Assembly: GCA_001800605.1 (NCBI GenBank)
Contig: MGVS01000070.1
Coordinates: 2,910 to 66,909 of the forward strand
Length of the DNA: 64,000 bases
Direction: 5' to 3'
From: Elusimicrobia bacterium RIFOXYD2_FULL_34_15
GTDB lineage: Bacteria; Elusimicrobiota; UBA8919
Shown: piece by piece, positions 1,590 to 48,479 of the stretch
Layout of the letters: each line of letters starts with the position of its first letter
How positions within the stretch are numbered: the first letter of the stretch is position 1
Notes under the pieces: generated by a model
What the model saw: the letters and a program-made list of their open reading frames with translations, nothing else
Database searches by the model: none
What the model was told of the DNA's origin: nothing
Translations under genes and position numbers: made by a program

Positions 1590-1666
1590 CCTATTCTTTC
1601 TGCGTTTATCTGCGTAAAAATTCGCGTAAATCTGCTTATAGTTCTCTCAGCGTGGATCTGCTTCTA
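1590..1666. repeat. Member of the ATCTGCGT/ATCTGCTTC interspersed repeat family, located at the 3' end of uvrB.
   Basis: tctgcgtttatctgcgtaaa...cagcgtggatctgcttcta. Related copies occur at 5190-5290, 5693-5830 and 37405-37502. Confidence 0.6.
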
Positions 1667-3700
1667 TTTTTTCACAGACATTTCTTTCAATTCAAATATC
1701 TTATCCCTTAATATAGCGGCAACTTCGAAATTCAAATTATCGGCTGCATCATTCATTTCTTTTTCAAGTTCCCGTATTAATTCAGGAATATTTTTCTTTT
1801 GGGCATATTTTACCCAGTCCTCTCTTAATAATGACAGCGAATCCTTGGTTGCTTTGTATTGGAACTCTTGCAGTTCTTCAATTGCTTTTATTATTGATTT
1901 GGGTTTTATATTATGTTTTATATTATAAGCAACCTGTTTTTTTCTTCTGCGATTCATTTCCGCTAAGGCACGTTTCATTGAGCCGGTTACGGTTTCAGCA
2001 TATAAAATAACTTTTCCGTTGATGTTTCGTGCTGCACGGCCCGAAACTTGAATTAACGATGTTTCGCTTCTTAAAAATCCTTCTTTATCAGCGTCTAAAA
2101 CAGCAACCAGCGAAACTTCGGGCAAGTCAAGGCCTTCACGCAGAAGATTTACACCAACTAAAACGTCAAAATTTCCCTTTCTTAAATCACTTAAAATCTC
2201 TATTCGTTCCAATGCCTGAATTCCGGAATGCAAATATTTTACTTTTATTTTTTTTTCAAAAAGATATTCTGCAAGGTCTTCCGCCATTTTTTTTGTTAAT
2301 GTAGTAACCAGGACCCGTTCTTTTTTAATAACACATTTTTCAATTTCTGAAATTAAATCATCAATCTGGTTTTCAACCGGTTTTACCACAACTTCAGGAT
2401 CAATAAGTCCGGTAGGTCTTACAATCTGTTCGACTATAGCACCCCTGGATTTTTTTAGTTCGTATTCCGAAGGTGTAGCGGACATGTAAATGACATTATC
2501 AACTAGCGATTCAAATTCTTCAAGTTTCTGAGGGCGGTTATCCAGGGCTGACGGCAGACGAAACCCGAAATCAATAAGAGTTTCTTTTCTTGCTTTATCC
2601 CCTTTATACATTCCGTTAATTTGCGGGATTGTGACATGTGATTCGTCGATAACCGTAAGAAAATCTTTTGGAAAATAATCAATGAGACATTCGGGTCTTG
2701 AACCGGGTTTTCTGCCTGAAAGGTGTCTTGAATAATTTTCAATTCCATGGCAATAACCCAGTTCAAGCATCATTTCTATGTCGTAATTCGTTCGTTGTTC
2801 AATTCGTTGCGCTTCCAAAAGTTTCCCTTCTTTTTTAAAATATTGAATCCGTTCTTTTAGTTCCCTTCTTATTTCTTCAACTGCTTTTTCCAACTGTGGA
2901 CGTGGTGTAACGAAGTGCTTTGCGGGATAGATGAAATATCGTGAGATTGTGGGATAGTGCGATGGTGCGATTGAGTGGCCGGTAAGAGGATTTATTTCGG
3001 TTATTTTTTCGATTTCATCACCGAAAAATTCAACCCTTATTGCTGTTTCGGAGTTTGCAGGAAAAATATCTATTAAGTCGCCCCGTACCCTGAATTTACC
3101 GCGTATAAATTCGATATCATTTCTTTCATAGTGTATATTTATTAATTCATTCAATAAAAAATTACGGTTAACCGTTTTACCTTTTTCGAGAACTACGCAC
3201 ATTTCTTTAAAATCTTCAGGAGAGCCGAGATTGTAAATTGAAGATACAGAAGCGACAACAATAACATCGGTTCTGGATAATAGAGAAGTTGTTGTTTTAA
3301 TACGTAGTCGGTCTATGTGTTCGTTTATTGAAGCGTCTTTTTCTATATAGGTATCTGTTTGCGGTATATATGATTCCGGCTGGTAGTAATCATAATATGA
3401 AATAAAATATTCAACTGCGTTATCAGGAAAAAAAGCTTTAAATTCGGAATAAACTTGTGCGGCAAGCGTTTTATTGTGCGATATTACAAGAGTAGGTTTG
3501 TTAATTTTTTGTATTACGTTTGCAATTGTAAAAGTTTTACCGGAACCGGTAACACCGAGAAGAACCTGATGTTTTTGATTTATTTTAATTCCATTAAGTA
3601 ATTGTTTTATTGCTTCGGGTTGGTCACCTGCAGGTTTGAATTTAGATATGAGATTAAATTGTCCCCGTACGAAAATGTTGTTAATATTGTTTTTTGCCAT
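1664..3700 (-). CDS. uvrB: Excinuclease ABC subunit B
   Basis: 678-aa ORF with Walker A LGVTGSGKTFT, the helicase motifs and a C-terminal UvrB/UvrC interaction region. Full-length UvrB. Confidence 0.95.
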   Translation of the reverse strand: MAKNNINNIFVRGQFNLISKFKPAGDQPEAIKQLLNGIKINQKHQVLLGVTGSGKTFTIANVIQKINKPTLVISHNKTLAAQVYSEFKAFFPDNAVEYFISYYDYYQPESYIPQTDTYIEKDASINEHIDRLRIKTTTSLLSRTDVIVVASVSSIYNLGSPEDFKEMCVVLEKGKTVNRNFLLNELINIHYERNDIEFIRGKFRVRGDLIDIFPANSETAIRVEFFGDEIEKITEINPLTGHSIAPSHYPTISRYFIYPAKHFVTPRPQLEKAVEEIRRELKERIQYFKKEGKLLEAQRIEQRTNYDIEMMLELGYCHGIENYSRHLSGRKPGSRPECLIDYFPKDFLTVIDESHVTIPQINGMYKGDKARKETLIDFGFRLPSALDNRPQKLEEFESLVDNVIYMSATPSEYELKKSRGAIVEQIVRPTGLIDPEVVVKPVENQIDDLISEIEKCVIKKERVLVTTLTKKMAEDLAEYLFEKKIKVKYLHSGIQALERIEILSDLRKGNFDVLVGVNLLREGLDLPEVSLVAVLDADKEGFLRSETSLIQVSGRAARNINGKVILYAETVTGSMKRALAEMNRRRKKQVAYNIKHNIKPKSIIKAIEELQEFQYKATKDSLSLLREDWVKYAQKKNIPELIRELEKEMNDAADNLNFEVAAILRDKIFELKEMSVKK

Positions 3701-3748
3701 TAGTATATTTAATATTTATTATATGACTGCATTTTCTAACGGGGCTTA

Positions 3749-3794
3749 CCCCGTACGAGATAGGAAGCGTTTGTAAAAATGCTTCCGTGTATTG
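3749..3794 (-). promoter_or_regulatory. Conserved 46-nt element, copy 1. The motif is CCCCGTACGAGATAGGAAGCGTTTGTAAAAATGCTTCCGTGTATTG and it lies immediately upstream of uvrB. It contains the hairpin GGAAGC..GCTTCC.
   Basis: Near-identical copy (1 indel) at 36096-36140 upstream of hom. Both copies are in sense orientation relative to the downstream minus-strand gene. Confidence 0.4.
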
Positions 3795-3886
3795 TATATG
3801 AAATATTCATATATTTTTATATCTTACTTTTAATAGCACATATTTAGTATACAAACTAATCTCTAACGGGGCAGGTTCACAGGAAA

Positions 3887-5149
3887 TTATAATGACCATC
3901 TAGGAGACAATTCTTTCCACGATTCTCTTACAGGTTTTGCTGTTGATGTAGTTTTTATGTTTTGGGCACAGGTTTTATCATAATATATTGTAGGTGTTCC
4001 GCCTCCAAGTGCAGTACCCCGAACTATAACAACTCCGTAAATATTAGGATTTGCGCTGGCGGTACATGTGCCATATACATATATTAATCCTCTGAAGCAA
4101 GGCTTGGTTATTGAAAAATCTTTAATTTGATGGTATCCGCCGTCACCGTCATATTGATTCTGATCAGTATTGTCAGGTTCAATGCCACCGGTATTAGGGG
4201 TATCAACACAATATTCTTTCCAGGCATTTACATGAGGAGTAGCTAAATAATCATCTCCTTTATTACTTGATTCAATGGTCAAATTACCTTTAACTATTAA
4301 ATTACCGTAAACATTGCAAGATTTTAATGTACAGTTGGCTTCCGTATAGTAAGTAGTAAAGGTTGTAGAAAATGCTTCTTTATATGGACCAGAGGAGCCG
4401 CCACCGGCATATGCACCTGTTAAGTCCAAATTACCAACTAAGTAGGTAGGTGTTGCCGGATTTGCAGTAGTATATGCTTGTGCATCCGTTTTGTAATCTG
4501 AAGTTATTTCAGGTATTTCCGCAACCTCAAATTCGTCATGCCATTCACGAAATTCATCATCTAAAGCGGAAGGTCCGGATGTCGGTGCGCCAGGTGTTGG
4601 GTCATTATGATTATGTCCGGCGCTACCGCAGGATATCTGACCACGAGAATATTTTCTTGGGTAAAAATTATCAGCTGAACCGCTTAAACTTATACCTAAA
4701 GTAGAAGAAACAGGCCCCCAATTAATTACAAAATTTCCGGTTACGGATATTCCGGGAGCAATCAATGCTGATGATACACCCGGTGTTTTAGAATAAATCG
4801 CCTGAATTGTTCTGCATTCATCTGTAGCTTGATCTTTTCCTGAAGATAGTATAGTTATCTGATTATCAGAAGGACCGCTTGAGAATTTTATTCTGTAATA
4901 ACCGCCTTCAACATCGGAATATGTTGAATCAGTACTGCTTCCGGTATAACCAGGGATTGCAGTTCCTAAAACAGCTATATCCCAAATGCCTGATTCATTT
5001 AATTTAAAAATACCTCTGTCTATTCCCGCTTCAGCGAGATGAAAAGCCCTTGTAGATTTTGTTTGCTTGGTAATTGATTTTGCTTCAAAAGTTGACATAT
5101 AGACAAGTGCCGGTATGACAACCCCTATAATCATAGCAATGATTAACAT
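3887..5149 (-). CDS. Type IV pilus minor pilin / assembly protein, PilX-like. The start is most likely the internal ATG at 5149. The longer ORF to 5314 reads through an intergenic repeat.
   Basis: A hydrophobic N-terminal segment (MLIIAMIIGVVIPALV) is followed by STRAFHLAEAGIDRG, resembling the PilX_N motif (RAF.AAEAGLE). The ORF-track N-terminal extension IRSRYTHKRYRSGFTRITTQ is encoded by the ATCTGCGT repeat family. Confidence 0.5.
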   Translation of the reverse strand: MLIIAMIIGVVIPALVYMSTFEAKSITKQTKSTRAFHLAEAGIDRGIFKLNESGIWDIAVLGTAIPGYTGSSTDSTYSDVEGGYYRIKFSSGPSDNQITILSSGKDQATDECRTIQAIYSKTPGVSSALIAPGISVTGNFVINWGPVSSTLGISLSGSADNFYPRKYSRGQISCGSAGHNHNDPTPGAPTSGPSALDDEFREWHDEFEVAEIPEITSDYKTDAQAYTTANPATPTYLVGNLDLTGAYAGGGSSGPYKEAFSTTFTTYYTEANCTLKSCNVYGNLIVKGNLTIESSNKGDDYLATPHVNAWKEYCVDTPNTGGIEPDNTDQNQYDGDGGYHQIKDFSITKPCFRGLIYVYGTCTASANPNIYGVVIVRGTALGGGTPTIYYDKTCAQNIKTTSTAKPVRESWKELSPRWSL

Positions 5150-5291
5150 TATGACTACAACCTGACCTTTTGAAGAACTCGAAGCTGACTTACGCTGAAC
5201 AATACGCTGATTGACGCAGACAAAATCAGTGTTTATCTGCGTTGTAATCCGCGTGAATCCGCTTCTATATCTTTTATGCGTGTATCTGCTT

Positions 5292-5690
5292 CTAATCTTT
5301 TCTAGCTTTATCATAAATTCGTCTCCGGATTTCTAATTTCTTGCTTCCAAAATTTATTAGTAAACCTAATTTATAATTACTTGCTTTTAGATAATACCAA
5401 AATTGTTTTTCATGTTCTTTTGTTATAAACGGCTGGCATTTAATTTCTATTAGGATTTTTTCATTAATAATTTTATCCGGAATGTAAGTTCCAACTTTAT
5501 TTTCATGATAATAAATATCTATTCTTTTTTGTTCTTCTACTTTAAGTCCTTGTTTTAATAATTCTAAACCAAGAGCGTTATCAACGATTGATTCCTTAAA
5601 TGCACCGTGAAATTCTTTCCAAATTTCGAAACATGCTCCTCTTATTTTATAAGTTTCTTTTTCGTATAAAAAATCCCCCATTTTTTTCAT
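5292..5690 (-). CDS. GxxExxY family protein (PD-(D/E)xK-fold, TIGR04256-like selfish small gene)
   Basis: N-terminal FLYEKETYKIRGACFEIWKEFHGAF matches the GxxExxY signature, and the C-terminal LINFGSKKLEIRR matches too. Its stop codon TAG is supplied by the repeat motif ATCTGCTTCTA. Confidence 0.7.
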   Translation of the reverse strand: MKKMGDFLYEKETYKIRGACFEIWKEFHGAFKESIVDNALGLELLKQGLKVEEQKRIDIYYHENKVGTYIPDKIINEKILIEIKCQPFITKEHEKQFWYYLKASNYKLGLLINFGSKKLEIRRRIYDKARKD

Positions 5691-5692
5691 CA

Positions 5693-5830
5693 GCTTAGAT
5701 CAGCGTTGCTATCAGCGTGTATCTGCTTCCATGCCCTTTCCGCGTAAATCTGCGTTCCAATCTGCGTAGATCTGCTTCAACGCACTTTCCGCGTAAATCT
5801 GCGTTCCAATCTGCGTAGATCTGCTTCTAT
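5693..5830. repeat. Repeat block of the ATCTGCGT/ATCTGCTTC family. It includes a perfect tandem duplication of a 43-nt unit, CTTTCCGCGTAAATCTGCGTTCCAATCTGCGTAGATCTGCTTC, at 5736-5778 and 5785-5827 (period 49).
   Basis: Direct reading of the sequence. Identical copies are separated by AACGCA. Confidence 0.8.
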
Positions 5831-5837
5831 GAATTTA

Positions 5838-6779: not shown

Positions 6780-9353
6780 TTATGGCCATGTGCCAGTAAA
6801 ATCTACAGTTACAGTTGAATTAGTGTCATCGACAGCTGTAGCAGTTACTCCTGTTTTAGTTTTTGTTGTTACAAAATCACCGGAAGTTTTTGTATACCAC
6901 GCCCGTAAGTTATAAGTATAACCTTTCCTTACTATTATTTCATATGTTCCGGAAGAGCCTGAAATAGAACCATAATATATATTTGCTCCGCTTCTAAATG
7001 TTGAATTGATTGTTTCGGGACTTTCTGCAGGGACCGTTCCGTTTGTCGCTATAATAAGGACACCCGTGGTTATATTGCCGCCTATCGCAGTATCACTGAC
7101 TGTCCCGATAATTTTTCCCCAGACCGATGTTATTTTAAAATTTTTGCCGGTTAAATCATCTCCTTGTGCAAGATTTATTGGAGTGGGCCAGTTGTCCTCT
7201 CTTATATAAGAGTCAGCAGAATCTAATACAGGATAAAGAACAACATCGGTTGCCGTTCTTATACCTTTTAAAGAGTATGTTCCGTCACTGCCGGAAACGG
7301 TGTCTTTTGAAAAGCCTGAGCTTGTACTTGTTGCTCTTACTGTGACAAAAGGCAATGCATCTCCTGAAGAATTTTTTGTTATTCCGGATATTTTTCCGGC
7401 CGTATATAGTTCCAGATTATCTACGGTTACGGATCTTCCTGCAGTTACTTCAATGAATTTTGTATCTTCTGTCCAATTTATATCGTCACAGTCCTGATTA
7501 GCAACTATTGTGTATGAACCTTCTGCTACTGTATAATTGTAATATCCGTTTGAATCTGTTGTTGCAGGCGAGTATCCGCTAACTGCAACTTGTATACCAG
7601 ATATACCTGTTGATGTTCCGCTGCGTATGACTCTTCCTGTGATAAATCCGCCGACTGACGGAGAAGATAATAAAACAGCGTTTATCTTATAATCTGAATG
7701 ATAAACTGGATATTTAGGTGAAGTAGAGGAATTAGGAATTGCTGTTCCAACATTGGAATTTACCGAGACATTTGCAATTTCTCTGTAATAACTACCCGAT
7801 GTAATATAAATAGACCAAGTTCCAGTAGCAACTGTAAGGGAAAAATATGCATTGGGTTTATTATTATTCTTATAGTATGCGGTAGTTGGTGAAGATAGTC
7901 CGTCGTTTGCGGATATTACAGCACCATATGCAGGTGTTCCGCTTACCGGTGGTGAAGAAGTTGAAGAATTATAAGGACAATAATTTTCAATACCATGTCT
8001 GTAATAAAAATCATAATCGTTAATATTAGAATCATATGCTCCACCGCCACGGATATCGGAAACGTATCCATAAGTTTGACCTGTAAAATGGTATCTGAAA
8101 AGTTCATGATCAGGTTCAATAGGACCATCATTACTTTTGAAACCTGTAGTTTCAGTTGCTTGTGAAGGAGGATCAGCGCCAAGTCCAGTATTTTTTCCCC
8201 ATGCTACTGAATCAATCTTGTTTGATGTTCCGGAATCATAAGAAAGAATAATTCCTCCCGGAACACTATTTTTTATGAAATCAGGATATGGACTTCCTTG
8301 ATCGTAAGTTGCGTCTGCAGTGACGCTTGTGTTATTAATATAAACAGTGCCTGTGTTTGCTATTAAGTAATAACTGAACGAAGGAACAGAAGTATTAGAA
8401 AAGCTAAGCGGAAATTCAGATAGATTATTGTCATCATAGTATAAATCAATTGATGCATCATCTATTGTCCATGCCCACGTTGTTGGATTAAATAACTGAA
8501 TGTATTCTTGTTCATGACTGTCATAATCCGTAGCTGTAACTATCAAAGAAATTAAAAGATGGTCATTAATCATCGCCCAACCTGTAACTGTTCCAGTCAA
8601 TTTTTGTGTTAATTGGATGTTTTGGTTGGCAGATACAGCAAAATTTGCAGTAGTATTGTTCCAGTAACCATCCTTTGATACAGTAAGTTGTATTGTTGCC
8701 GGAGTTGTGGTTTTAATCAGATAATAACCCGTAGAAGAAGTTTGTGAAGCCCAGTTTAGATTTTGAGCAACTTCAACTCTTGCGCTTGCGATACCTACTG
8801 CGGTTCCTGTTGTTGTTACAAGGCCATAAATTGTACCGCCTAAAGTTGTTCTGTAAGGATCATCTCTAAGGTTATATAGTACAAGCGATTTTGATTCGTT
8901 ATTTTCTGTCCAGGTTACTTCCACTTTTATTTTTTTTATACCTTCATCTGCCCCGGTCGGAGACATTGTTGATATTACTGTGTTCCCGGCATCGACTTCT
9001 TCCCGTGCACGCCAAACTGTAGTATATCTTACAAAAGTAGCATCACCGATTCTCAAAGTTTCCGGAGTATAACCTGTATAGGTTTCATCATGACCATGAT
9101 TTGCTAAATCGTCCAATGTTGTTACCAGTAATCTTGCATATGAATAGTTTTTTAAATATTCAATTTTTTCTTGTGCTAGATTATTTGCAATAGTTCTGGT
9201 TTTTGATGTAATAAGTCCTTTTCCGATTGTGCCGAAAGTTGTAATAATACCCATTATTACTATGCTTATTACAAGTATAGTAACCATTATTTCAACTTGA
9301 GAAAAACCAGAAGGTTTTTTTAATTTATAGAGTGAAAATATTTTTTCGTTCAT
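6780..9353 (-). CDS. Large (857 aa) type IV pilin-like protein with a prepilin N-terminus. Putative pilus tip or adhesin minor pilin.
   Basis: KKPSG|FSQVEIMVTILVISIVIMGII is a class III signal peptide. The body is long and S/T/G/N-rich, beta-rich and extracellular-looking. Confidence 0.5.
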   Translation of the reverse strand: MNEKIFSLYKLKKPSGFSQVEIMVTILVISIVIMGIITTFGTIGKGLITSKTRTIANNLAQEKIEYLKNYSYARLLVTTLDDLANHGHDETYTGYTPETLRIGDATFVRYTTVWRAREEVDAGNTVISTMSPTGADEGIKKIKVEVTWTENNESKSLVLYNLRDDPYRTTLGGTIYGLVTTTGTAVGIASARVEVAQNLNWASQTSSTGYYLIKTTTPATIQLTVSKDGYWNNTTANFAVSANQNIQLTQKLTGTVTGWAMINDHLLISLIVTATDYDSHEQEYIQLFNPTTWAWTIDDASIDLYYDDNNLSEFPLSFSNTSVPSFSYYLIANTGTVYINNTSVTADATYDQGSPYPDFIKNSVPGGIILSYDSGTSNKIDSVAWGKNTGLGADPPSQATETTGFKSNDGPIEPDHELFRYHFTGQTYGYVSDIRGGGAYDSNINDYDFYYRHGIENYCPYNSSTSSPPVSGTPAYGAVISANDGLSSPTTAYYKNNNKPNAYFSLTVATGTWSIYITSGSYYREIANVSVNSNVGTAIPNSSTSPKYPVYHSDYKINAVLLSSPSVGGFITGRVIRSGTSTGISGIQVAVSGYSPATTDSNGYYNYTVAEGSYTIVANQDCDDINWTEDTKFIEVTAGRSVTVDNLELYTAGKISGITKNSSGDALPFVTVRATSTSSGFSKDTVSGSDGTYSLKGIRTATDVVLYPVLDSADSYIREDNWPTPINLAQGDDLTGKNFKITSVWGKIIGTVSDTAIGGNITTGVLIIATNGTVPAESPETINSTFRSGANIYYGSISGSSGTYEIIVRKGYTYNLRAWYTKTSGDFVTTKTKTGVTATAVDDTNSTVTVDFTGTWP

Positions 9354-9552: not shown

Positions 9553-9716
9553 CAGTATACAGTACACAGGATACAGTCTTAAGAAAAATCATAAGTTAAA
9601 ATTAAATCTAAATAGTAAGAGCTATTTGCTATTTATGCGTGCTGTGTACTGTCTTTTTAGTGCTATATTCTGTGTACTGTATTCTGTATTCTGTATACTG
9701 AGTACTGTCTTTTTAA
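9553..9716. repeat. ACAGGATACAG/CTGTATTCTGTAT repeat block with inverted-orientation arms. MITE-like element, about 165 nt.
   Basis: Left arm cagtatacagtacacaggatacagtc, right arm ctgtattctgtattctgtatactgagtactgtc. Same family as 15412-15470 and 34680-34725. Confidence 0.5.
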
Positions 9717-11632
9717 TATCTCCATGGATACCATTTTCTTTCTTCATCTTCAGGATTTTCAGTCTTTTTCTCACCGCCACCCGGTTTTATCCGGATGTTA
9801 AACCAGAATTCATAATAATTTTCTTTTTGGTCAAGAGGAATTCTTTGAATATAAGAAAAAGATGCTTCCCAACAGTGTAAATTTCTATAAACTTTTATAG
9901 CATTTTCATAATATCTGAAATTTGAAAAATTATAATTTAAAAAATCATAATTTAAAGATGTCTGCATTTTATATGCAATTTCCCAGTTTTTTGTTGGTCT
10001 AATTCCGGTTTCTGCAAAGGTGGTAAGTTTGCCCGGAGCAGCAAGGTTATAAGATACTCCGTTTTTTAAATAAGCATTTCCCTTAAAATTTATATTTGTA
10101 TCTAATTGTACGGAATTTGGTTTTCTGAATAATACGTTATAATCATTTCTATAGTAGACATTAAAAAATCTGTATGGGCTATAATCAATTTCAGTAGTTA
10201 TGCCTTCTAAACGTTCTCTAAAAGATATTATTTTTTCATTAAGCGCTCTGCGTATATTAAGTGCTGTAAAACCTCTAACAGTTAGATTATTCAAATATAC
10301 GGATTGAATTGTTCTTATCTTGTTTGTTAATACTCCATGATAATCATCATGCCGTAAATCAGGTTGTTGTTCAAATTCATGGATAAATTGGTGGTCAAAA
10401 ATTCTGGTTGAGCGTATATCCAAATCTAAATTTGTCCTGTATCGCCATGAATAAACATTTTTTTCTCTCGCAGTAATTTCGTCTCTATCTTTCCAAAATT
10501 GCTTATATCCTACTGCGGAGGTTAGTGTAATCCTTCTTGAAATAGAAAGCGGATTGGAAAATTTGATATCACCGGTTGCACCGGTTGTATAGGCACCGGT
10601 GGAAATAATTGACTTATCCCATGACCTTGCTCCGCTTAGATTTAATTCGTAATAAAGCGGTAATTTTTTTATTTTTATTTGCCTGGTCGCAAAAGATACT
10701 GCAGGAACAGATAGGGAATTCAAGATATAAATATTTTTGTTATTATCAAAGACATCACTTCTTGCAAATGTGATACGGGTTGTTGTTTGCTCTTTGTTTT
10801 TTGTAAGTGAAATCGAAGAATCTAAACTATTATAAATTTTTATCCAGTCATTTGTATAATATGCGTTAAATGACTCGTCGCTTGCATAATTTGAATTAAT
10901 TTGAGCAATCCAGTTTTGGCCTAAATTCTGCCAGTGATAAACCCTTGAATTCCACCTGATTTGTCCGGGTTTAGATGCGAAATTTTTTCCTTTAATTCTA
11001 TATCCATAAATTGTCCCGTTAACTTTGCCTTCATCTTTATAGAAAATTTCCCCTCCAGTTCCGATACCATTTATGGTAAAGTAATCAAGATAAAGTTTCC
11101 CGTAGATATATTCTGAAAGCGGATACCCAAGCATACCTTTTGCAAAAAATCCGTCGCGATTATTATAACCCGGCTTAATTTCAATTTTGTATTTTCTTTG
11201 TTTTAAATTTTTGTAATAGTATGGAAGTATTGCTGAAGGAATATCTCCTAGAAATAATACGACGTTTGTTGCGGTTATTCTTTTATTGACTATAAGGCTG
11301 GCACTTCTTGCATAATATTTGTAGTGCGGATTTTCGAGGTCACAAGTAGTGAAATAAATTCTTTTCAACAAAAGCTCTTGTGTTTTTTGATATGCTTCCA
11401 CAGAATCGCAGTTTAAATATGTATCCGTAGTTTTTAATTTTACATTGCCTGAAAAAATAGTTTTCCCTTGTAATTTATCAAACTGAACTTTATCGGAAGT
11501 TATATTGACTTCCTGCTCGCAATATAAATAAGTAACGGGTAACGAGTAACGGGTAACGAAAAGAACAGTAATGAGTAATGAGTAACGGGTAACGGGTAAT
11601 AAGATTATAAATAGTTTTTTTATATGTTTCAT
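9713..11632 (-). CDS. lptD: LPS-assembly protein LptD (OstA family)
   Basis: An OstA-like N-domain (NITSDKVQFDKLQGKTIFSGNVKL) is followed by a long beta-barrel body. The N-terminal signal region LPVTRYSLLITVLFVTRYSLPVTYL is encoded by the GTAACGGGTAACGAG repeat. Confidence 0.7.
   Translation of the reverse strand: MKHIKKLFIILLPVTRYSLLITVLFVTRYSLPVTYLYCEQEVNITSDKVQFDKLQGKTIFSGNVKLKTTDTYLNCDSVEAYQKTQELLLKRIYFTTCDLENPHYKYYARSASLIVNKRITATNVVLFLGDIPSAILPYYYKNLKQRKYKIEIKPGYNNRDGFFAKGMLGYPLSEYIYGKLYLDYFTINGIGTGGEIFYKDEGKVNGTIYGYRIKGKNFASKPGQIRWNSRVYHWQNLGQNWIAQINSNYASDESFNAYYTNDWIKIYNSLDSSISLTKNKEQTTTRITFARSDVFDNNKNIYILNSLSVPAVSFATRQIKIKKLPLYYELNLSGARSWDKSIISTGAYTTGATGDIKFSNPLSISRRITLTSAVGYKQFWKDRDEITAREKNVYSWRYRTNLDLDIRSTRIFDHQFIHEFEQQPDLRHDDYHGVLTNKIRTIQSVYLNNLTVRGFTALNIRRALNEKIISFRERLEGITTEIDYSPYRFFNVYYRNDYNVLFRKPNSVQLDTNINFKGNAYLKNGVSYNLAAPGKLTTFAETGIRPTKNWEIAYKMQTSLNYDFLNYNFSNFRYYENAIKVYRNLHCWEASFSYIQRIPLDQKENYYEFWFNIRIKPGGGEKKTENPEDEERKWYPWRY
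11523..11605. repeat. GTAACGGGTAACGAGTAACG-family tandem repeats, here inside the 5' end of lptD
   Basis: aacgggtaacgagtaacgggtaacgaaaagaacagtaatgagtaatgagtaacgggtaacgggtaat. Family members occur at 16745-16785, 17205-17260, 21050-21100, 24060-24095, 25605-25690 and 48570-48760. Confidence 0.8.
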
Positions 11633-14623: not shown

Positions 14624-15403
14624 TTAAATGTTACGAGTGATATATTTAAGAAAATTTATAATAGATTTCTTCTTTTTTATTAAACTAATTATTGCACTTC
14701 CTATGATAAAACCTTCGCAATATTTCTTTAATTTTTCTATATGTTCAGGTTTAGAAATACCGAAGCCAACAAACAATGGTTTTGAAGTTTTGTTTTTAAG
14801 TTTTTTTAAAAATGGAATTAATTCATCGGATAATTCTGCTCGCGCTCCTGTGATACCGGTTACTGCTGTGACATAAATAAAACCTGTGGATATTTTAGAT
14901 ATTTTTTCTGCTCTTTTTAAACCGCTTGTTAATGCTACAAGCGGTATATAAGCTATATTATATTTTTTTGCTAATTTTCTTATCAACGAACTTTCTTCAA
15001 AAGGTAAGTCAGGAATTATAATACCGTCTACTCCTGTTTTATGTGATTTGCTAAAAAAAGCATTCAAACCATAGTTATAAATCGGATTAAGATATCCCAT
15101 CAATATAACAGGGATTTTTGTTTTTTTTCTTATATTTTTTACAATAGAAAAACATTTTTCTAAATTTACATTATTTTCAAGTGCTTTTTGAGAAGAATAT
15201 TGTATTGTCGGACCATCAGCTATCGGATCTGAAAATGGTATCCCCAATTCAATTATATCAGAATATTTTTCTATTTCAATTATCAATTTCTCTGTAGTAT
15301 TTACATTTGGATAACCTGCAGTAAGAAATATAGAGATTGCTTTCTTTTTTTCTTTTTTTAATTTATATAATGTTTTTTCTAAATTATTCATAATGCAGCT
15401 CAC
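14624..15403 (-). CDS. trpA: Tryptophan synthase alpha chain
   Basis: FLTAGYP, ELGIPFSDPIADGPTIQ. Confidence 0.9.
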   Translation of the reverse strand: MSCIMNNLEKTLYKLKKEKKKAISIFLTAGYPNVNTTEKLIIEIEKYSDIIELGIPFSDPIADGPTIQYSSQKALENNVNLEKCFSIVKNIRKKTKIPVILMGYLNPIYNYGLNAFFSKSHKTGVDGIIIPDLPFEESSLIRKLAKKYNIAYIPLVALTSGLKRAEKISKISTGFIYVTAVTGITGARAELSDELIPFLKKLKNKTSKPLFVGFGISKPEHIEKLKKYCEGFIIGSAIISLIKKKKSIINFLKYITRNI

Positions 15404-15411
15404 AGGATACA

Positions 15412-15470
15412 GGATACAGGATACAGGATACAGGATACAGGATACAGGATACAGAATACAGAATACAGAA
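15412..15470. repeat. Microsatellite (CAGGATA)7(CAGAATA)3, the reverse complement of (CTGTATC)n. It lies directly upstream of the trpA start, between trpB and trpA.
   Basis: acaggatacaggatacaggatac...agaatacagaatacagaatt read directly. Confidence 0.85.
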
Positions 15471-16687: not shown

Positions 16688-16784
16688 ATCGATTTATTAT
16701 ACAAAAAATAGCATAAAAAACAATAAAAATAGCAGTTAACATATTACCCATTACTCGTTACTCATTACCCGTTACTTATTTTCT

Positions 16785-25048: not shown

Positions 25049-25711
25049 TTATTTTTTTGGAAGCGTCATTAAAGTTGTGTTAATAACACCGTTAGCTTCC
25101 TCTTTTAACGGTGAGTGCAAAGCTTTATCTATAGTTTTTTCAACAAGTTGTGAGGCAAACGCTCTCCCGATATCCTTAAATTCAAATTCTTTTTTTGAAA
25201 CTTTTCGTTCATCTTCCCATAAAAGCTGTTCTGTTTTTGCATCAAATAATTTAAAATTTCCCTCGACAGTTCTTGCATAATAAAAACCAAGAGTAGTATA
25301 TTTAAACTCTATTACATCTCCGAAAAAAAGCCCGTCAACGTTTAATTTTTCACCTAATTCTTTCGGGGTGGTTGTCGGAAATTGCCCGGCTTCGGTAATA
25401 CCCATTTTTCTTAATTTCTCATCTATTTCTTCAAGCGGAATAGTGTTATAACCAATATTGGTTAGCCGTTTATTAAAAAGATACCGCAATAAAACCGGTG
25501 CATTCAAATCAATGGATTGGTTGGAAAACGGCAAAACAGCAACTCGCGCAGGCGGTATATAATTTTCTATTATATACTTTGCTTTCGGCGCACAACCAAT
25601 AAATAAAAAACAAATAACGAGTAATGAGTAACCAGTAAAAGACAAGTAATGAGTAACGGGTAACGAGTAACGGGGAACGGGTAAAAAGTAAAGTAATTTT
25701 AAATTTTTCAT
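25049..25711 (-). CDS. Lipoprotein, possibly the DUF799-type partner of CsgG-like proteins
   Basis: Lipobox FIGC and adjacency to the CsgG-like gene. N-terminal 30 aa (LPVPRYSLPVTHYLSFTGYSLLVI) are encoded by the GTAACGGG repeat. Confidence 0.35.
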   Translation of the reverse strand: MKNLKLLYFLPVPRYSLPVTHYLSFTGYSLLVICFLFIGCAPKAKYIIENYIPPARVAVLPFSNQSIDLNAPVLLRYLFNKRLTNIGYNTIPLEEIDEKLRKMGITEAGQFPTTTPKELGEKLNVDGLFFGDVIEFKYTTLGFYYARTVEGNFKLFDAKTEQLLWEDERKVSKKEFEFKDIGRAFASQLVEKTIDKALHSPLKEEANGVINTTLMTLPKK

Positions 25712-25771
25712 TGGTTTTATATTAGATTGAATAATTTTTAACTTTTAACTTTTAATTTTTAATTGCTTTTA

Positions 25772-33533: not shown

Positions 33534-34703
33534 TTAGAGTTCGATTGCTGATATAATTTTTTTGATATTTGGTTCTAATACTTTTGGTTGTTTTGCCGAT
33601 TTTATTGCTCTATCAGGATCTTTCAGTCCATGTCCCGTTACCGTGCAAACAATCACACAGCCTGATTTTTGGATATTTATTTTTGAATTGAATTTTATAA
33701 GTCCGGCGACGGATGCTGCTGATGCCGGTTCGACAAAGACACCTTCTAAAGAAGCTAATAGTCTATATGCTTTTATTATTTCTGAATCAGTGACCATATC
33801 TATAACACCCTTTGATTCGTCTCTTGCTTCTTCTGCTTTTTTCCAACTTGCGGGATTTCCGATTTTTATAGCGGTTGCTATTGTCTTTGGGTTTTTTATT
33901 GGTTTACCTTTTACAATAGGTGCAGAACCGGATGCCTGAAAACCCATCATGTGTGGCAGGTTACAGGTCTCGCCACGGCGAGCAGGAAAAGGTAGAAAGG
34001 TAGAAAGGTTAGGACTTAATTTTAACCTTTTACTTTTAACTTTTAACTTTGATTTATCATTTGCATATTCTTTATAGCCTTTCCAGTAAGCAGTGATATT
34101 TCCGGCGTTTCCGACCGGAATAAAATGATAATCCGGAGCCCTGCCCAAAAAGTCGATTATTTCAAAAGCTGCGGTTTTTTGGCCTTCAATTCTATATGGA
34201 TTTACTGAATTAACAAGCGTAATCGGATAATTTTTTGTTATTTCAATAACGATTTTTAGTGCCTCATCAAAATTCCCTTTTAATGCTATGACCTTTGCTC
34301 CATGCATCATTGCCTGTGAAAGTTTGCCTAACGCGATAGAACCATCGGGAATTACAACTGAACATTTAAGTCCTGCTCTTGCGGAATACGCAGCAGCTGA
34401 CGCAGCGGTATTGCCGGTTGAAGCACAAATAACTGCTTTGCTTCCTTCTTCAACTGCTTTAGAAATTGCCATTGTCATACCGCGGTCTTTGAAAGAACCG
34501 GTTGGATTCATCCCTTCAAATTTTAAATAAATCTCAGAATTTACCTTTAAGAATTTTTCGAGGTTTCTTGCCCGTAACAATGGCGTATTACCCTCATAAA
34601 GCGTAACTATAGGTGTCTTGTCAGACACGGGTAGATACTTCCTATATCTATCAATAATCCCTTTATAAATCATATTTAAACCAGGATACAGAATACAGTA
34701 CAC
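33534..34703 (-). CDS. thrC: Threonine synthase, carrying an in-frame insertion of about 35 aa derived from intergenic repeat families
   Basis: PLP site [18 protein letters not shown], then ...[18 protein letters not shown]-[insert][14 protein letters not shown]. Confidence 0.85.
33955..34064. repeat. Composite repeat inserted in-frame in thrC. Units are tcgccacggcgag, (ggtagaaag)2 and (ttttaac)n.
   Basis: ggtctcgccacggcgagcaggaaaaggtagaaaggtagaaaggttaggacttaattttaaccttttacttttaacttttaactttga. It translates to [35 protein letters not shown]. Confidence 0.8.
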
Positions 34704-34790
34704 AGGATACAGTATTATAAGTTCTCGTCTATTAACTTCAAATTATAAACTTTTTCCTCTCTACCTTTTTCCCTTTTTACCGTATCTTTA
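34680..34790. repeat. thrC-hom intergenic repeats: an ACAGGATACAG family member plus a CTCTACC family member
   Basis: ccaggatacagaatacagtacacaggatacag ... cctctctacctttttccctttttacc. Confidence 0.7.
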
Positions 34791-36089
34791 TTCTAAAATT
34801 CTCAGCATTACTGTTTTTGAATTTATAACAGATAAACTATCTATTGTTTTAAGTGCTTTTTTAATATTCCCCTCTTTAGCTTTATGAGTTAGTATAAAAA
34901 TAGGAACTGATTGTTTTTTATGCCTTTGTTCCTGGAAACATGCAGCTATAGAAACACCATTCTTGCCCAAAATACCGGATATGTTTGCAAGAACACCCGG
35001 TTTATCTACAGTTGTAAATCTTAAATAATATTTACATTCAGTTTCTTCAATTGGCTTTATGTTGAGCTTAAGTGTTTTATCATATGAAACATAGGGGAAT
35101 TTTCCTGCAGTTCTATAAAATATATTTCTTGCAAGACAAACTATATCTGATGTGACACCGCTTGCTGCAGCAGGGCCGCCGGCGCCTTTACCGTAAAACA
35201 TAATATCTCCGGCAGAATCACCAAATATATAAATCGCATTGTATTCATTTTCAACCGTCGCAAGCGGGTGTTCAGCAGAAATAAATGCAGGGTAAACAGT
35301 TGCAGAAATCTTATTATTATCACTTTTCACTATTGCAAGAAGTTTTAATATATATCCGAATTCATTTTTTGCATATTTAATATCAATAAGATTAATATTA
35401 GCAATACCTTCTCTGTAAATTTTTTCAAAAGGCAGATGATTGCCGTATGCGATAGACGCTAAAACTGAGAGTTTATGGGCAGTATCAGAGCCGTTTATAT
35501 CAAGTGTCGGGTCAGCTTCAGCAAAGCCTGATTTTTGAGCTAATTTTAATGCTTCATCAAAACTCATGTTATCATCCGTCATTTTTGATAATATAAAATT
35601 TGTGGTTCCATTCAATATACCAATAATGGATTGAATTTTATTTGCAACAAGTCCTTCGTTTAAAGATTGAATTACAGGTATACCTGCACCGACAGATGCT
35701 TCAAAGTATACGGATACTCTTTTTCTCAATGCTAATGAAAAAATCTCATCCCAATATTTAGAAAGAACAGCTTTATTTGCGGTAACGACATGTTTATTGT
35801 TGTTTAACGCTTCAATTATTATTTTTCTGGATATATCGGTTCCGCCTATCAATTCAACAAGAATATTGACTTCCGGGTCCTGAATAACTTTGTTTGAATC
35901 AGTAGTTAATTTTTCTTTCGGTAAATTGGAAGCTTTAAGCCGAGAAGAATCCTTGTCACAAACCCATTTTATGTTTATACCGCAGCCAATTTTTTTATTG
36001 ATATCGGACCGGTGTTTCTGCAATATTTTTATTACATTTAATCCGACGGTTCCGCATCCGACAATTCCTATATTGATTTTTTTATCCAT
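34788..36089 (-). CDS. hom: Homoserine dehydrogenase
   Basis: NAD-binding GxGxVG, Homoserine_dh domain, C-terminal ACT. Confidence 0.9.
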   Translation of the reverse strand: MDKKINIGIVGCGTVGLNVIKILQKHRSDINKKIGCGINIKWVCDKDSSRLKASNLPKEKLTTDSNKVIQDPEVNILVELIGGTDISRKIIIEALNNNKHVVTANKAVLSKYWDEIFSLALRKRVSVYFEASVGAGIPVIQSLNEGLVANKIQSIIGILNGTTNFILSKMTDDNMSFDEALKLAQKSGFAEADPTLDINGSDTAHKLSVLASIAYGNHLPFEKIYREGIANINLIDIKYAKNEFGYILKLLAIVKSDNNKISATVYPAFISAEHPLATVENEYNAIYIFGDSAGDIMFYGKGAGGPAAASGVTSDIVCLARNIFYRTAGKFPYVSYDKTLKLNIKPIEETECKYYLRFTTVDKPGVLANISGILGKNGVSIAACFQEQRHKKQSVPIFILTHKAKEGNIKKALKTIDSLSVINSKTVMLRILE

Positions 36090-36095
36090 AAGTTA

Positions 36096-36140
36096 CCCCG
36101 TACGAGATAGGAAGCGTTTGAAAAATGCTTCCGTGTATTG
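36096..36140 (-). promoter_or_regulatory. Conserved 46-nt element, copy 2, ending 6 nt before the hom ATG
   Basis: ccccgtacgagataggaagcgtttgaaaaatgcttccgtgtattg, compared with copy 1 at 3749-3794. Confidence 0.4.
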
Positions 36141-36217
36141 CTGATAAAACTTTTTTATACTTTTAATACTTCTTTTTAATAAAATGTATTTCGTATTCTA
36201 ACGCATCTCTAACGGTG

Positions 36218-37399
36218 CTATTCCCTCAGAAATTTTTTCAGACGAAGTAACGCATCGTGAAATCTATTAAAATGAGTAACTAACGAAAACCTGACGTATC
36301 CTTCACCGTAGTCGCCGAAACCGCTTCCAGGCAAGCATACTATCCCGGTATTTCTTATTAACTGTTCACAAAAATTTAATGAACCCTTTTTTTGAAATTT
36401 TTCCGGAATCTTTGCCCAGAGATACATTGTTGCCTTTGGTTTTTCTACAACAAACCCGAGTTTGTTTAAACCGTCACAAAATTTATCCCTTCTTTTTTTG
36501 TATTCATCTAGAGTAGATTTCATTAAACCGTCTTCACTGTTTAAGGCAGCTACTGCAGCTAACTGCAGGAATGTCGGTACACCATAATCAACAAATGATT
36601 TAAATTTTTCAAGAGGAGCTATTATTTTTGAATTTCCAAGGCAAAAACCAATACGCCAACCGGCCATATTATATGTTTTAGATAGAGAATAAAATTCAAC
36701 GCCCACATCTTTCGCTCCCGGTGTTTGTAGAAACGAAGGAGCAACAAAATCATCAAATGTAACCTCTGAATATGCATTATCATGGCAAACTATGATATCG
36801 TATTTTTTTGCAAATCTAACAACTTCTTTAAAAAAAGATAAATCTTCAACAACAGCAGCAGTAGGATTATTAGGATAATTCAAAATCATGAATTTTGCTT
36901 TTTTAGCAACCTTTTCAGGAATTTTTGTCAAATCCGGTATCCATTTATTCTCCGGCAATAAAGGCATATCAAAAATCTTTCCGCCAGCTAGGATAACATT
37001 GTTAAGATGTGCAGGATATGCAGGATTTGAAACAAGTGCTGTATCACCCAAATCCAGATATGTCATACACATATGTGCGATACCTTCTTTAGAACCAATC
37101 AGTACAATTGCTTCATTATCAGGATTTAAGTCAACATCGAATCTTTTTTTATACCAGCTACAGATTGCTTTTCTTAGTTTTGGCATTCCTTTTGCTTGAG
37201 GGTACCGATGTGTTCCCGGGTGATTTTTTATAGTATCTACAAGGCGGTCAATGATAATACTTGGTGTCGGCAAATCGGGATTTCCCATTCCCAAATCAAT
37301 AACGTCTAATTTTTTTTCAAATGCCTCTTTTTTTAAAACATTTATAATTGAAAAAATATAAGGCGGTAGTTTATCTAATTTTTTGGAATAATGCTTCAT
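36218..37399 (-). CDS. PLP-dependent aminotransferase, class I/II (AspC/AlaT/LL-DAP-aminotransferase-like)
   Basis: SKTYNMAGWRIGF carries the PLP-binding Lys. About 393 aa. Confidence 0.8.
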   Translation of the reverse strand: MKHYSKKLDKLPPYIFSIINVLKKEAFEKKLDVIDLGMGNPDLPTPSIIIDRLVDTIKNHPGTHRYPQAKGMPKLRKAICSWYKKRFDVDLNPDNEAIVLIGSKEGIAHMCMTYLDLGDTALVSNPAYPAHLNNVILAGGKIFDMPLLPENKWIPDLTKIPEKVAKKAKFMILNYPNNPTAAVVEDLSFFKEVVRFAKKYDIIVCHDNAYSEVTFDDFVAPSFLQTPGAKDVGVEFYSLSKTYNMAGWRIGFCLGNSKIIAPLEKFKSFVDYGVPTFLQLAAVAALNSEDGLMKSTLDEYKKRRDKFCDGLNKLGFVVEKPKATMYLWAKIPEKFQKKGSLNFCEQLIRNTGIVCLPGSGFGDYGEGYVRFSLVTHFNRFHDALLRLKKFLRE

Positions 37400-37404
37400 T
37401 AAAA

Positions 37405-37502
37405 CCTCGCGGATTCACGCTGATACCTACGCTGATCTACGCTGAACTTTCCGCGTTGTAATCCGCGTTTATCTGCTTCTATGCTTTCAGCGTGGATCTG
37501 CT
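37405..37502. repeat. ATCTGCGT/ATCTGCTTC family repeat block. It supplies the C-terminus and TGA stop of the 87-aa ORF.
   Basis: cgctgatctacgctgaactttccgcgttgtaatccgcgtttatctgcttctatgctttcagcgtggatctgcttc. Confidence 0.7.
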
Positions 37503-37750
37503 TCGAGTCTTTCAATGTACTCAGGGATCCGTTTAGACAATTCAAAAATCGCTAACCCAATTACTATGCATGCAAGTCCATAAACAACTTCAAAACCCGA
37601 ATATTTTGACCATTTAGCAAGCGGAACGAATTCTGACTCCGGAAAGCCGATGAGAGCATCATAAAGTCCTTTAAGTGCTACAATGCCCCCCCAGACAACA
37701 AAAATCCATCCGCTGCTTTTAAAAACTGCACGATATTTTATTTTTTGCAT
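37487..37750 (-). CDS. Small membrane protein (2 TM), unknown function
   Basis: 87 aa. Hydrophobic segments IFVVWGGIVAL and VVYGLACIVIGLAIF. Confidence 0.3.
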   Translation of the reverse strand: MQKIKYRAVFKSSGWIFVVWGGIVALKGLYDALIGFPESEFVPLAKWSKYSGFEVVYGLACIVIGLAIFELSKRIPEYIERLEADPR

Positions 37751-46579: not shown

Positions 46580-46631
46580 TACTTAAGTATTATTTTTTTT
46601 AAAATCATATATTTAGTATTCAATCTTATCT

Positions 46632-47081
46632 TTAACGGGGTGCATTTGTCATTTTGTACTTAATTAATTCGTTTAATGTATTTACTAGGTCATGTAATTC
46701 GTCTTTTTTACGTATCTTAATTTCAGTTAAATTTCCGTTTTCTATTATCTCTTCTATGTGTTTTTCAATTCTATATAATGGTCCTGCGATTCTATGTGAA
46801 AGACGCAAACTTAACCAGGATGCAAAAGCGACAAAAATCGTTGTTTCGATTATTAGTATATAATTCATTTGAATTAGTACCGGTTTAATTTTTGAAATAT
46901 CGTACATTTCTTTCATCATATTTTCTATTCCATAAAGAAATGTTATATATATGCTTAGTGTAACAATAAGCATCATTACAATAACCGAAGATACAGTAAT
47001 CCAAAAATATTTTAATTGCATTCTTTTTTTAGTAATTAACGCTTTAGGGTTGCTTTTTCTTCTGTCATTATCAGTGATCAT
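46632..47081 (-). CDS. Membrane protein with HAMP-like domain
   Basis: Two TM helices then LSHRIAGPLYRIEKHIEEIIENGNLTE. The start is uncertain; ATG candidates lie at 47156, 47081 and 47024. Confidence 0.4.
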   Translation of the reverse strand: MITDNDRRKSNPKALITKKRMQLKYFWITVSSVIVMMLIVTLSIYITFLYGIENMMKEMYDISKIKPVLIQMNYILIIETTIFVAFASWLSLRLSHRIAGPLYRIEKHIEEIIENGNLTEIKIRKKDELHDLVNTLNELIKYKMTNAPR

Positions 47082-47751
47082 TTTTTTTAACTCCTTTTTC
47101 AAGTTCATATGCTCTATTGAATAAACGTATTCCTTCTTTTTTATCCCCCATATCATTATATATAGAACCGATTTTCCTTAAAGATTCCGCAACCAGAAGA
47201 TCATCATTAAATGAACTGCTTACTTTTATAGATTCTTCGTAATAAAATATTGCCGTTTTTAAATCATTCAGCCTGTAATAAATGTCACCTATACTATTAA
47301 ACGTTTTTGCTTTAAATTTATCATTTTTATTTATATCTAATTTATCTAAAATACTTTCATATGATTTTAATGCTTTATCTAATTCACCGAGTTTTTCATA
47401 AGAAATAGCAATACGGTTCAATATTGCAATAATTTCGGGTTTATTATTAAATATTTTTTTTATTTCCAGTGATTGGTTGAAATATTGCACAGCTTTACCG
47501 TTATCACCCAAATTTTTATAACATAAGCCGATATTGTTCAATGCAATACCCTCAATTTCTTTTGAGTAAATTTGCTGTGAAATTTTTAAAACTTTGCTAA
47601 AATTGGCGATTGCCTCTTCGTATTTTTTATTATTAAAAAGTTTTATGCCTTCTAAGTGATACAAAAGAGCATCATCTTTGTTTTGAGAAAAAAGAAGATT
47701 AATACTAAATACAAAAAATAATAAATAGGTAAACCTTTTACAGGTTTTCAT
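47071..47751 (-). CDS. TPR-repeat protein with signal peptide
   Basis: Repeated YxxAIxxFxKAL / LGxxxKAxxYY motifs. Confidence 0.6.
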   Translation of the reverse strand: MKTCKRFTYLLFFVFSINLLFSQNKDDALLYHLEGIKLFNNKKYEEAIANFSKVLKISQQIYSKEIEGIALNNIGLCYKNLGDNGKAVQYFNQSLEIKKIFNNKPEIIAILNRIAISYEKLGELDKALKSYESILDKLDINKNDKFKAKTFNSIGDIYYRLNDLKTAIFYYEESIKVSSSFNDDLLVAESLRKIGSIYNDMGDKKEGIRLFNRAYELEKGVKKNDH

Positions 47752-48479
47752 TTATTAAAATCTTCCAATTGTTTAAAAAGATCATCCCCAAACTGGGATT
47801 CCTTTTTGGCAGGTTTTTCAGATTTTTTTTCAGTTGATTTTTTTATGCTTATATCTTGCTCAGATTTTTGCTCCGTAATTTCTTTTTTTCGTGTTTCGGT
47901 TTTATATTGAGACAGAGAAATTTTCTTAACTATTATTTTAGGCGGTAAATTTCCTTCGTTCAAAGAAACAACCCCGCCGGCATTTCCGTTATAATATATT
48001 CTAAAAGGTGCATCTTTAATTGTAGGCTGGTAAGAAGTTCCTTTAATTTCTAATTCTGTTTCCCATCTAGGATGAATAATAAGTTTGCCGTTTGCATCTG
48101 CGATGCCTTTTACTATAGGAATTGAAAATCTTACTTTATATATACCATTTACATCCGTCACGGCATTTTCAAATCCTATTCCGTCAACCATAATTTGAAT
48201 ATCAGGCATGGGAATACCGTCTTCTGTGTCTATTTCACCTTTAAGGTAACCCTCTATCCAGTCTGTATAATTTGCACTTGAAAAAAATAAAAATCTTTTA
48301 TAACCGGCTAGTTTTTTTACGACTGATAAATCAGATAAACGATTGGGATTCAGGTTTTCGTTTATAGTCGTGATTTTTCCTGTCGATTTACTACCGATTA
48401 ACGGAAAACCTGAACAACCTATAAAAAGTAATGTAAAAATTAAAAATGAAAAATTAAAAATTAATGTATACTTTTTCAT
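47748..48479 (-). CDS. Lipoprotein, unknown function, with a K/E-rich C-terminus
   Basis: Signal MKKYTLIFNFSFLIFTLLFIGC. The h-region is encoded by the TTAAAA-family repeat at 48435-48467. Confidence 0.4.
   Translation of the reverse strand: MKKYTLIFNFSFLIFTLLFIGCSGFPLIGSKSTGKITTINENLNPNRLSDLSVVKKLAGYKRFLFFSSANYTDWIEGYLKGEIDTEDGIPMPDIQIMVDGIGFENAVTDVNGIYKVRFSIPIVKGIADANGKLIIHPRWETELEIKGTSYQPTIKDAPFRIYYNGNAGGVVSLNEGNLPPKIIVKKISLSQYKTETRKKEITEQKSEQDISIKKSTEKKSEKPAKKESQFGDDLFKQLEDFNK

Follow-up and report, generated by a model that had tools for sequence, protein, structure and literature searches.

The 46-nucleotide (nt) repeat found upstream of both uvrB and hom is most probably the right-hand end (terminal inverted repeat [TIR] plus subterminal hairpin) of a nonautonomous, MITE-type transposable element; it is neither a conserved cis-regulatory site nor a switch shared by the two genes. 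In the 64,000-nt stretch of DNA analyzed here (the window; 33.7% G+C, with 53 of its 56 long open reading frames [ORFs] on the minus strand), copy A of the repeat occupies plus-strand positions 3749 to 3794 (CCCCGTACGAGATAGGAAGCGTTTGTAAAAATGCTTCCGTGTATTG, 46 nt), and copy B, at 36096 to 36140, is the same sequence minus one T in the hairpin loop (45 nt). The near identity of these two stretches, with which the original prediction began, was reproduced, and so were the distances to the start codons, 48 nt for uvrB (ATG at 3700, minus strand) and 6 nt for hom (ATG at 36089). The two copies share one orientation with respect to their genes, as had been proposed, but the sequence quoted as sense is that of the plus strand and is antisense to uvrB and hom, which both lie on the minus strand; read in gene sense, the repeat is CAATACACGGAAGCATTTTT(A)CAAACGCTTCCTATCTCGTACGGGG. 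The hairpin loop, given earlier as 13 nt, measures 12 nt in copy A (hairpin at 3763 to 3786, minus strand) and 11 nt in copy B (36110 to 36132, minus strand), and the GGAAGC/GCTTCC stem can be extended to 10 pairs. The hairpin core did not occur in any of 100 dinucleotide-preserving shuffles.

The near-identical stretch exists as described, but it is only the 3′ module of a longer noncoding unit, named T1, over which the similarity continues at lower identity for 122 to 123 nt. T1 consists of CCCCGTTAGAGAT, an AT-rich interior, the GGAAGC...GCTTCC subterminal hairpin, and ATCTCGTACGGGG; its two ends form imperfect 13-nt TIRs with a fixed 2-nt mismatch. At each of its two sites in the window, T1 occupies the space between two co-directional genes. 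Copy A (3749 to 3871, minus strand) is 123 nt long, and copy B (36096 to 36217, minus strand), with 122 nt and a degenerate 5′ arm (CACCGTTAGAGAT, CACCGT...), fills the spacer between a class I/II aminotransferase gene (36218 to 37399, minus strand), whose TAG stop abuts the first base of T1, and hom (homoserine dehydrogenase, 34788 to 36089, minus strand). The ends of T1 pair with each other in the predicted RNA folds of both copies, and the 251-nt region of copy A is predicted to fold by such long-range end pairing with a z value of −4.95. The window also contains one T2 element, described below, and one solo T1-like 5′ half (CCCCGTTAAAGATAAGATTGAATACTAAATAT..., 46597 to 46640, minus strand), which lacks the 3′ module and overlaps the TAA stop of the ORF at 46632 to 47156, giving two T1 copies, one T2 copy, and one half T1 in 64 kb. 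Solo 5′ halves of this kind (CCCCGTTAGAGAT plus GTTTGTATAC...AAATAT, 3′ module missing) are also found at L008:about 8300-8371 and L017:16148-about 16205; the three lie at unrelated sites, and each begins at or beside a stop codon. Elsewhere in the window, four exact TCTAACGG sites (18350, 18481, 51780, and 55380; CCGTTAGA on the minus strand) are all within coding sequence and mark no element, and the same is true of a site at 26566.

Comparison with the sister species indicates that T1 moved into both places. The UvrB protein encoded in the window is identical to that of the uncultured Elusimicrobia bacterium RIFOXYD2_FULL_34_15, known from a metagenome-assembled genome. The closest relative of the Hom protein comes from RIFOXYC2_FULL_34_12 (85% identity), and gene order is conserved. 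The hom site of the sister species (L017 to L020) reads TAA-aaa-ATG, with a 3-nt spacer; the window reads TAG[T1]TAActtATG, with a spacer of 128 nt. Copy A is absent from the orthologous uvrB site as well, and the reverse polymorphism is seen between leuA and ilvD, where the window has a spacer of 21 nt and the sister species has a T1 5′ half behind the leuA stop; presence/absence polymorphism is found at three orthologous sites (hom, uvrB, and leuA-ilvD). Both window T1 copies are insertions relative to the sister species. The flanks of copy B show only a TA ambiguity and no clean 4-nt duplication, and contigs with an identical Hom protein were all identical upstream, so that no strain variation was found at hom. 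In farther relatives (Hom 74 to 75% identical; L021:9945-10000 and L022:9920-10000), the aminotransferase-hom spacer holds ATCAGCG and AATCGCTGT repeat units and no T1. Two independent short-read contigs with hom (L005:1-35 and L006:1-33) start within the T1 hairpin loop, as is expected when an assembly graph breaks at a repeat; the T1 family breaks short-read assemblies of these metagenome-assembled genomes.

At uvrB, T1 is accompanied by a second element, T2 (3663 to 3744, minus strand), which is 82 nt long and composed of CCCCGTTAGAAAATG, 52 nt, and CATTTTCGTACGGGG. At either end, the outermost 10 nt of T2 match those of T1, and its inner arm is GAAAATG/CATTTTC instead of GAGAT/ATCTC; the two are joined by a TAAG linker (3745 to 3748, minus strand), and the resulting ACGGGG-TAAR-CCCCGT junction also joins elements at other loci. 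T2 copies of 82 to 85 nt occur elsewhere at L008, L010, L011, L013, and L028. In the sister species (L025), uvrB reads TAA-tcatca-GTG CAT AAA TTT AAA TTA without an insert; in the window it reads TAA-tttcct-GTG AAC [ctg-T1-taag-T2-a] CAA TTT AAT CTC. The 213-nt T1+T2 insert (3662 to 3874) sits behind codon 2 of the ancestral gene and cuts off the remnant of the old start (GTG AAC, 3875 to 3880, minus strand), whose frame runs straight into TAG. The present uvrB (678 amino acids, 1664 to 3700, minus strand) has its start codon (3700 to 3698), its first 12 full codons, and part of the 13th within T2, so that its N terminus up to the insert boundary (MAKNNINNIFVRG) is T2 encoded; UvrB begins MAKNNINNIFVRGQ-FNLISKFKP in the window and M/V-N-K-FKLVSKFKP in all relatives. 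The insert has split uvrB from its old start, and the ATG inside T2 is predicted to supply the start codon now. Intron-like excision at the RNA level was considered and rejected: when T1 and T2 are removed individually, an in-frame TAA remains, and uvrB therefore needs the new ATG. The insert lies between CCTG and ACAA, with no clean 4-nt duplication. The locus offers an example of gene repair after insertion: a repair gene of the essential type was hit by a miniature element two codons behind its start and survived with a start codon taken from that element. In UvrB of related Elusimicrobia (P0122 to P0144), low-complexity insertions of widely differing length occur at one position near residue 27, between QLV..I and HQVLLGVTGSGKT (e.g., RSPKSEVRSQK and RAQSTEHRNSALPSTLSS); they may be translated repeat insertions. 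The window UvrB has no insertion there (about 3610 to 3625).

The T1 family extends well beyond the window. A 20-mer from the 3′ module (GCTTCCTATCTCGTACGGGG) had no match in the species-representative genome collection and matched exactly at nine metagenome loci, with six of the matches on five contigs of a single metagenome. Seven more T1 copies, all distinct and complete, came from these loci, together with one that is truncated where its contig ends; they adjoin unrelated genes and a tRNA. A variant copy missed by the 20-mer, L011b (L011:3403-3524), has a perfectly complementary right arm, and metagenome contigs hold at least eight further copies including it. Across copies, T1 measures 118 to 123 nt and T2 measures 82 to 85 nt. 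The two are joined in either order through ACGGGG-TAAR-CCCCGT, T2 is also found with a T1 half, and TAAR flanks both sides of many Elusimicrobia copies. Among nine aligned T1 copies, mean pairwise identity is 0.97 in the 5′ arm, 0.84 in the 46-nt 3′ module, and 0.52 in the interior; the 6-bp hairpin stem is invariant, and the loop varies. Copies A and B follow this pattern, with 45 of 46 positions identical in the 3′ module and 41 of 64 in the interior. Their near identity over 46 nt is better explained by selection on a transposon end than by very recent copying: selection for transposability would keep the ends and the hairpin as the interior drifts, which would explain why only these 46 nt are nearly identical.

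Copies lie 0 to 15 nt past stop codons, and for most of them the next start follows after 6 to 36 nt (at L012 and L013, after up to 135 and 212 nt). The element is co-oriented with the neighboring genes at all 15 insertion loci in Elusimicrobia, a count in which gene direction and replication direction are inseparable, since nearly all genes of these loci are on one strand. Many copies in random orientation had been named as the sign of a plain interspersed repeat; the copies are indeed many, but their orientation in the Elusimicrobia loci is nonrandom. Insertion by a strand-specific mechanism could produce this bias, as could selection against the antisense orientation, which resembles a terminator. 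In terminator-likeness, the hairpin of copy A scores only on the plus strand, antisense to the genes, and copy B on neither strand; no intrinsic terminator (a G+C-rich hairpin followed by a U run) was found in gene sense.

We scanned representative genomes for CCCCGTTAGARA and TYTCGTACGGGG 56 to 101 nt apart, a pattern for which our own uniform-composition estimate allows at most about 0.8 chance matches. The scan returned 11 loci, from Patescibacteria, Parcubacteria, Brennerbacteria, Saccharibacteria, Planctomycetota, and Elusimicrobia UBA9627. Elements with the same termini span 82 to 110 nt overall; the non-Elusimicrobia copies are 99 to 110 nt long, and their interiors are unrelated. Perfect 4-nt direct repeats (CTCG, CTCA, TCCA, TTCA, TGAA, TTTA, CAGG, and TGAG) flank 11 of 12 same-termini copies. 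The 10-nt terminus carries the same asymmetry across phyla (TTAGA on the left, TCGTA on the right), the inverted repeats measure 13 to 19 nt, and the complementarity further inward is subfamily specific (GAAATCAGA/TCTGATTTC, GAAAATTTACA/TGTAAATTTTC, and GAGAA/TTCTC). In a 20-row alignment, 84.7% of arm cells pair, against 75.7% after shuffling, and changes on both sides that keep complementarity number 42 cells, against 21 ± 3 in shuffles (0 of 500 shuffles reach 42), a result that inverted repeats and hairpin stems predict equally. The presence of the same transposon ends in very distant, mostly uncultured phyla, including Patescibacteria ribosomal protein operons, offers a handle on the transposase and on horizontal spread.

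In UBA9627 (L028:4206-4373), two identical 82-nt T2 copies lie head to tail between co-directional ORFs, each followed by TGAG or TGAA. A Patescibacteria ribosomal protein operon carries two elements (L030:5233-5335 and L030:6752-6854), each with a 4-nt duplication; the one between the L14 and L24 genes is in sense, and the one between the S8 and L6 genes is antisense. The Planctomycetota element (L033:4442-4551), which makes up 114 nt together with its TTTA duplication, is in frame and stop free shortly after the start of a predicted 331-residue ORF. At L029:6613-6712, L035:71-170, L032:3918-4018, and L034:577-677, the flanks are themselves inverted repeats (e.g., cGAAATTTAC...GTAAATTTCg), and pairs of loci share flanks, which suggests insertion into preexisting palindromes or duplication of a larger unit. 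The two-arm pattern had no match in viral contigs; viral 18-mer arm matches at two loci with one shared sequence were judged to be chance, since no partner arm lies within element distance and the nearest 3′-arm-like site (one mismatch) is about 230 nt away. The plasmid and phage collections gave no meaningful match.

Prokaryotic MITEs are defined as elements of 50 to 800 bp without a transposase gene (PMC11602168), and the family fits this definition in its small size, its inverted repeats, the target-site duplications around its relatives in other genomes, its multiple copies, and the polymorphism of its insertions. T1 (118 to 123 nt), T2 (82 to 85 nt), and the relatives (99 to 110 nt) are within the size range and carry no transposase gene; against an expected terminal repeat of at least 10 to 15 bp, T1 has 13 nt with the fixed 2-nt mismatch and other subfamilies up to 19 nt; and against an expected duplication of 2 to 10 bp, perfect 4-nt repeats surround 11 of 12 copies from other genomes, the window copies being without a clean one. 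Several copies occupy unrelated sites, and presence or absence varies at hom, uvrB, and leuA-ilvD. T1 and T2 form an undescribed MITE-like family within a known class of mobile DNA: in the literature, the terminal 10-mers matched only unrelated primer and aptamer papers, and papers on MITEs of Elusimicrobia or of the Candidate Phyla Radiation gave no description of T1. Neither a transposase nor an autonomous copy bearing these ends turned up in the approximately 0.4 Mb examined, and no arm pairs 0.8 to 3 kb apart were seen in the window or any examined locus.

A transposase encoded elsewhere would bind the conserved ends and move the element by cut and paste, making cuts staggered by 4 bp. Transposition would continue only in lineages whose ends are intact, which would account for the match of copies A and B in the end module and their divergence inside. 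Since copies lie inside operons, they would probably be cotranscribed and fold into a long mRNA hairpin, and the orientation bias may stem from a subterminal hairpin that resembles a terminator only in the antisense orientation. Besides the negative search for a transposase in the approximately 0.4 Mb and the lack of clean 4-nt duplications at the two window copies, two further observations count against the MITE model. The 10-nt terminus with its fixed 2-nt asymmetry is more conserved across phyla than is usual for insertion-sequence families, and co-orientation at 15 of 15 loci is unexpected for symmetric cut and paste, so that selection or a strand-specific mechanism is needed. Tentatively, and with a rather small chance of being right, these features (10-nt terminus, strand-distinguishing mismatch, and gene co-orientation) could be read as those of a single cross-phylum family, spanning Elusimicrobia, several Patescibacteria lineages, and Planctomycetota, that depends on an enzyme recognizing the hairpin end in its folded form, not inverted repeats in duplex form, or that is kept by hosts as an operon-internal RNA hairpin. 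If true, either a folded-end enzyme or a host-kept hairpin would make the family more than a routine insertion-sequence derivative.

A REP- or REPIN-like origin, in which an imperfect palindrome is recognized as single-stranded DNA by an HUH tyrosine transposase (RAYT or IS200/IS605-like), possibly host domesticated, with the tandem mosaics corresponding to BIMEs, is unlikely. HUH Y1 transposition is not known to leave target-site duplications, and perfect 4-nt duplications surround 11 of the 12 relatives. REP units are 20- to 40-bp palindromes, one end of which carries an unpaired GTAG or CGTC tag (PMC3733652); the present unit of about 100 nt has arms of only 13 to 19 nt, its termini (CCCCGTTAGA and TCGTACGGGG) show no GTAG or CGTC outside a stem, and neither the window nor the examined loci contain a RAYT gene. 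In common with REP, BIME, and REPIN sequences (PMC3733652; PMC3116915), the elements are hairpin-forming imperfect palindromes with conserved ends and a variable spacer, arranged downstream of ORFs in mosaic tandems (here T1-T2, T2-T1, and a T1 half after T2). The conserved 2-nt mismatch makes the two strands of the long-range hairpin differ, the copies lie just past stop codons within operons and are co-oriented with genes, and REPs have been reported within repair genes (PMC3733652). Quite improbable is the view that the primary role lies in the transcript, as a host-selected structured RNA (an intercistronic processing, stability, or translation-control hairpin) with spread as a secondary effect. 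The terminal stem that closes the element in predicted folds, the placement shortly after stops and mostly shortly before the next start, the 3′ GGGG at Shine-Dalgarno distance from the hom ATG, the far stronger conservation of ends than of interiors, and the orientation bias are all compatible with it. Yet orthologous sites are empty in a species with 85% identical proteins, the neighboring genes are unrelated, some T2 copies carry uncompensated stem changes, and one relative is antisense within a ribosomal protein operon; the T1 stems never vary and give no covariation support, the test on nine copies being uninformative either way for that reason.

The same evidence bears on the two readings offered originally, a mobile or recently copied element and a strongly constrained cis-regulatory site. 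The former holds up, given the insertions relative to the sister species, the multicopy TIR family, and the 4-nt target-site duplications around relatives in other phyla. Against the latter stand the empty orthologous sites and the outcome of the checks proposed with it: instead of a conserved downstream gene class, the copies adjoin unrelated genes and one tRNA, and the Rfam search found no family. With Rfam, the whole window gave no match at the gathering threshold, positions 3600 to 3920 gave only chance-level matches at E values up to 5 (0.85 upward), and six loci from other phyla gave one tRNA and nothing else. An element-borne promoter was rejected too, as T1 copies have no sigma-70-like site in gene sense. 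Reading the repeat as mobile DNA avoids calling a false uvrB/hom regulon. It is very improbable that the arms are site-specific recombination sites, either like the attC sites of integrons or as inverted repeats bounding a promoter segment that can invert, despite the imperfect inverted repeats with fixed mismatches, the variable segment of constant length directly after ORFs, and a left arm (GTTAGAG/GTTAGAA) that resembles the attC core GTTRRRY. An attC site has the inverse core RYYYAAC at its 5′ end and the core GTTRRRY at its 3′ end, in a cassette array next to an integrase; here GTTAGAR is at the 5′ end, the wrong end for a core, and the flanks are housekeeping genes in conserved order rather than cassettes. 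In addition, 4-nt direct repeats lie outside the arms, the interior has no promoter-like site, and inversion of T2 would destroy the uvrB start.

The closest known systems include the Neisseria Correia elements and the enterobacterial ERIC/IRU sequences, which are prokaryotic MITEs of transcribed intergenic regions. They resemble the T1 family in being noncoding units of about 100 to 150 nt with TIRs and short target-site duplications, present in multiple copies between co-directional genes and predicted to form a long hairpin when transcribed. Their sequence is unrelated, however, and the duplication of the T1 type is 4 nt and variable (CTCG, CTCA, TTCA, TAAG, and others) rather than TA; several phyla share its 10-nt termini around interiors that are unrelated. 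Rickettsia palindromic elements are small palindromic repeats that can insert in coding regions and be translated; the T2-supplied UvrB N terminus and the in-frame Planctomycetota copy (L033) are similar to them in this respect, but there is no sequence relationship and most copies here are intergenic. The IS1380 family and piggyBac have ends that start with CC or CCC and a target duplication of 4 to 5 bp, and the piggyBac terminus CCCTAGAAAGATA loosely resembles CCCCGTTAGAAAAT of the T1 family, a likeness that may be due to chance; the target duplication of the T1 family is not TTAA, and no IS1380-type transposase lies next to these ends in the loci examined.

The window contains other repeats besides. 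Tandem repeats with a period of 7 nt or a multiple of it (ACAGGAT, AGTAACG/TAACGAG, TAATTTT, and TAAAAAT) are present in many intergenic spacers (9642 to 9708, 11531 to 11599, 15402 to 15468, 16744 to 16780, 25604 to 25691, 25732 to 25764, 34662 to 34717, 48434 to 48464, and 49265 to 49299); heptamer families are shared by distant sites, including the thrC-hom spacer, and are reminiscent of the heptamers repeated in filamentous cyanobacteria. Positions 5699 to 5831 contain 2.7 tandem copies of a 49-nt unit rich in ATCTGCGT, with related copies at 1599 to 1674, 5226 to 5302, and 37440 to 37514; the unit adjoins genes encoding a PD-(D/E)XK_3 protein and a protein of the 23S rRNA intervening-sequence type.
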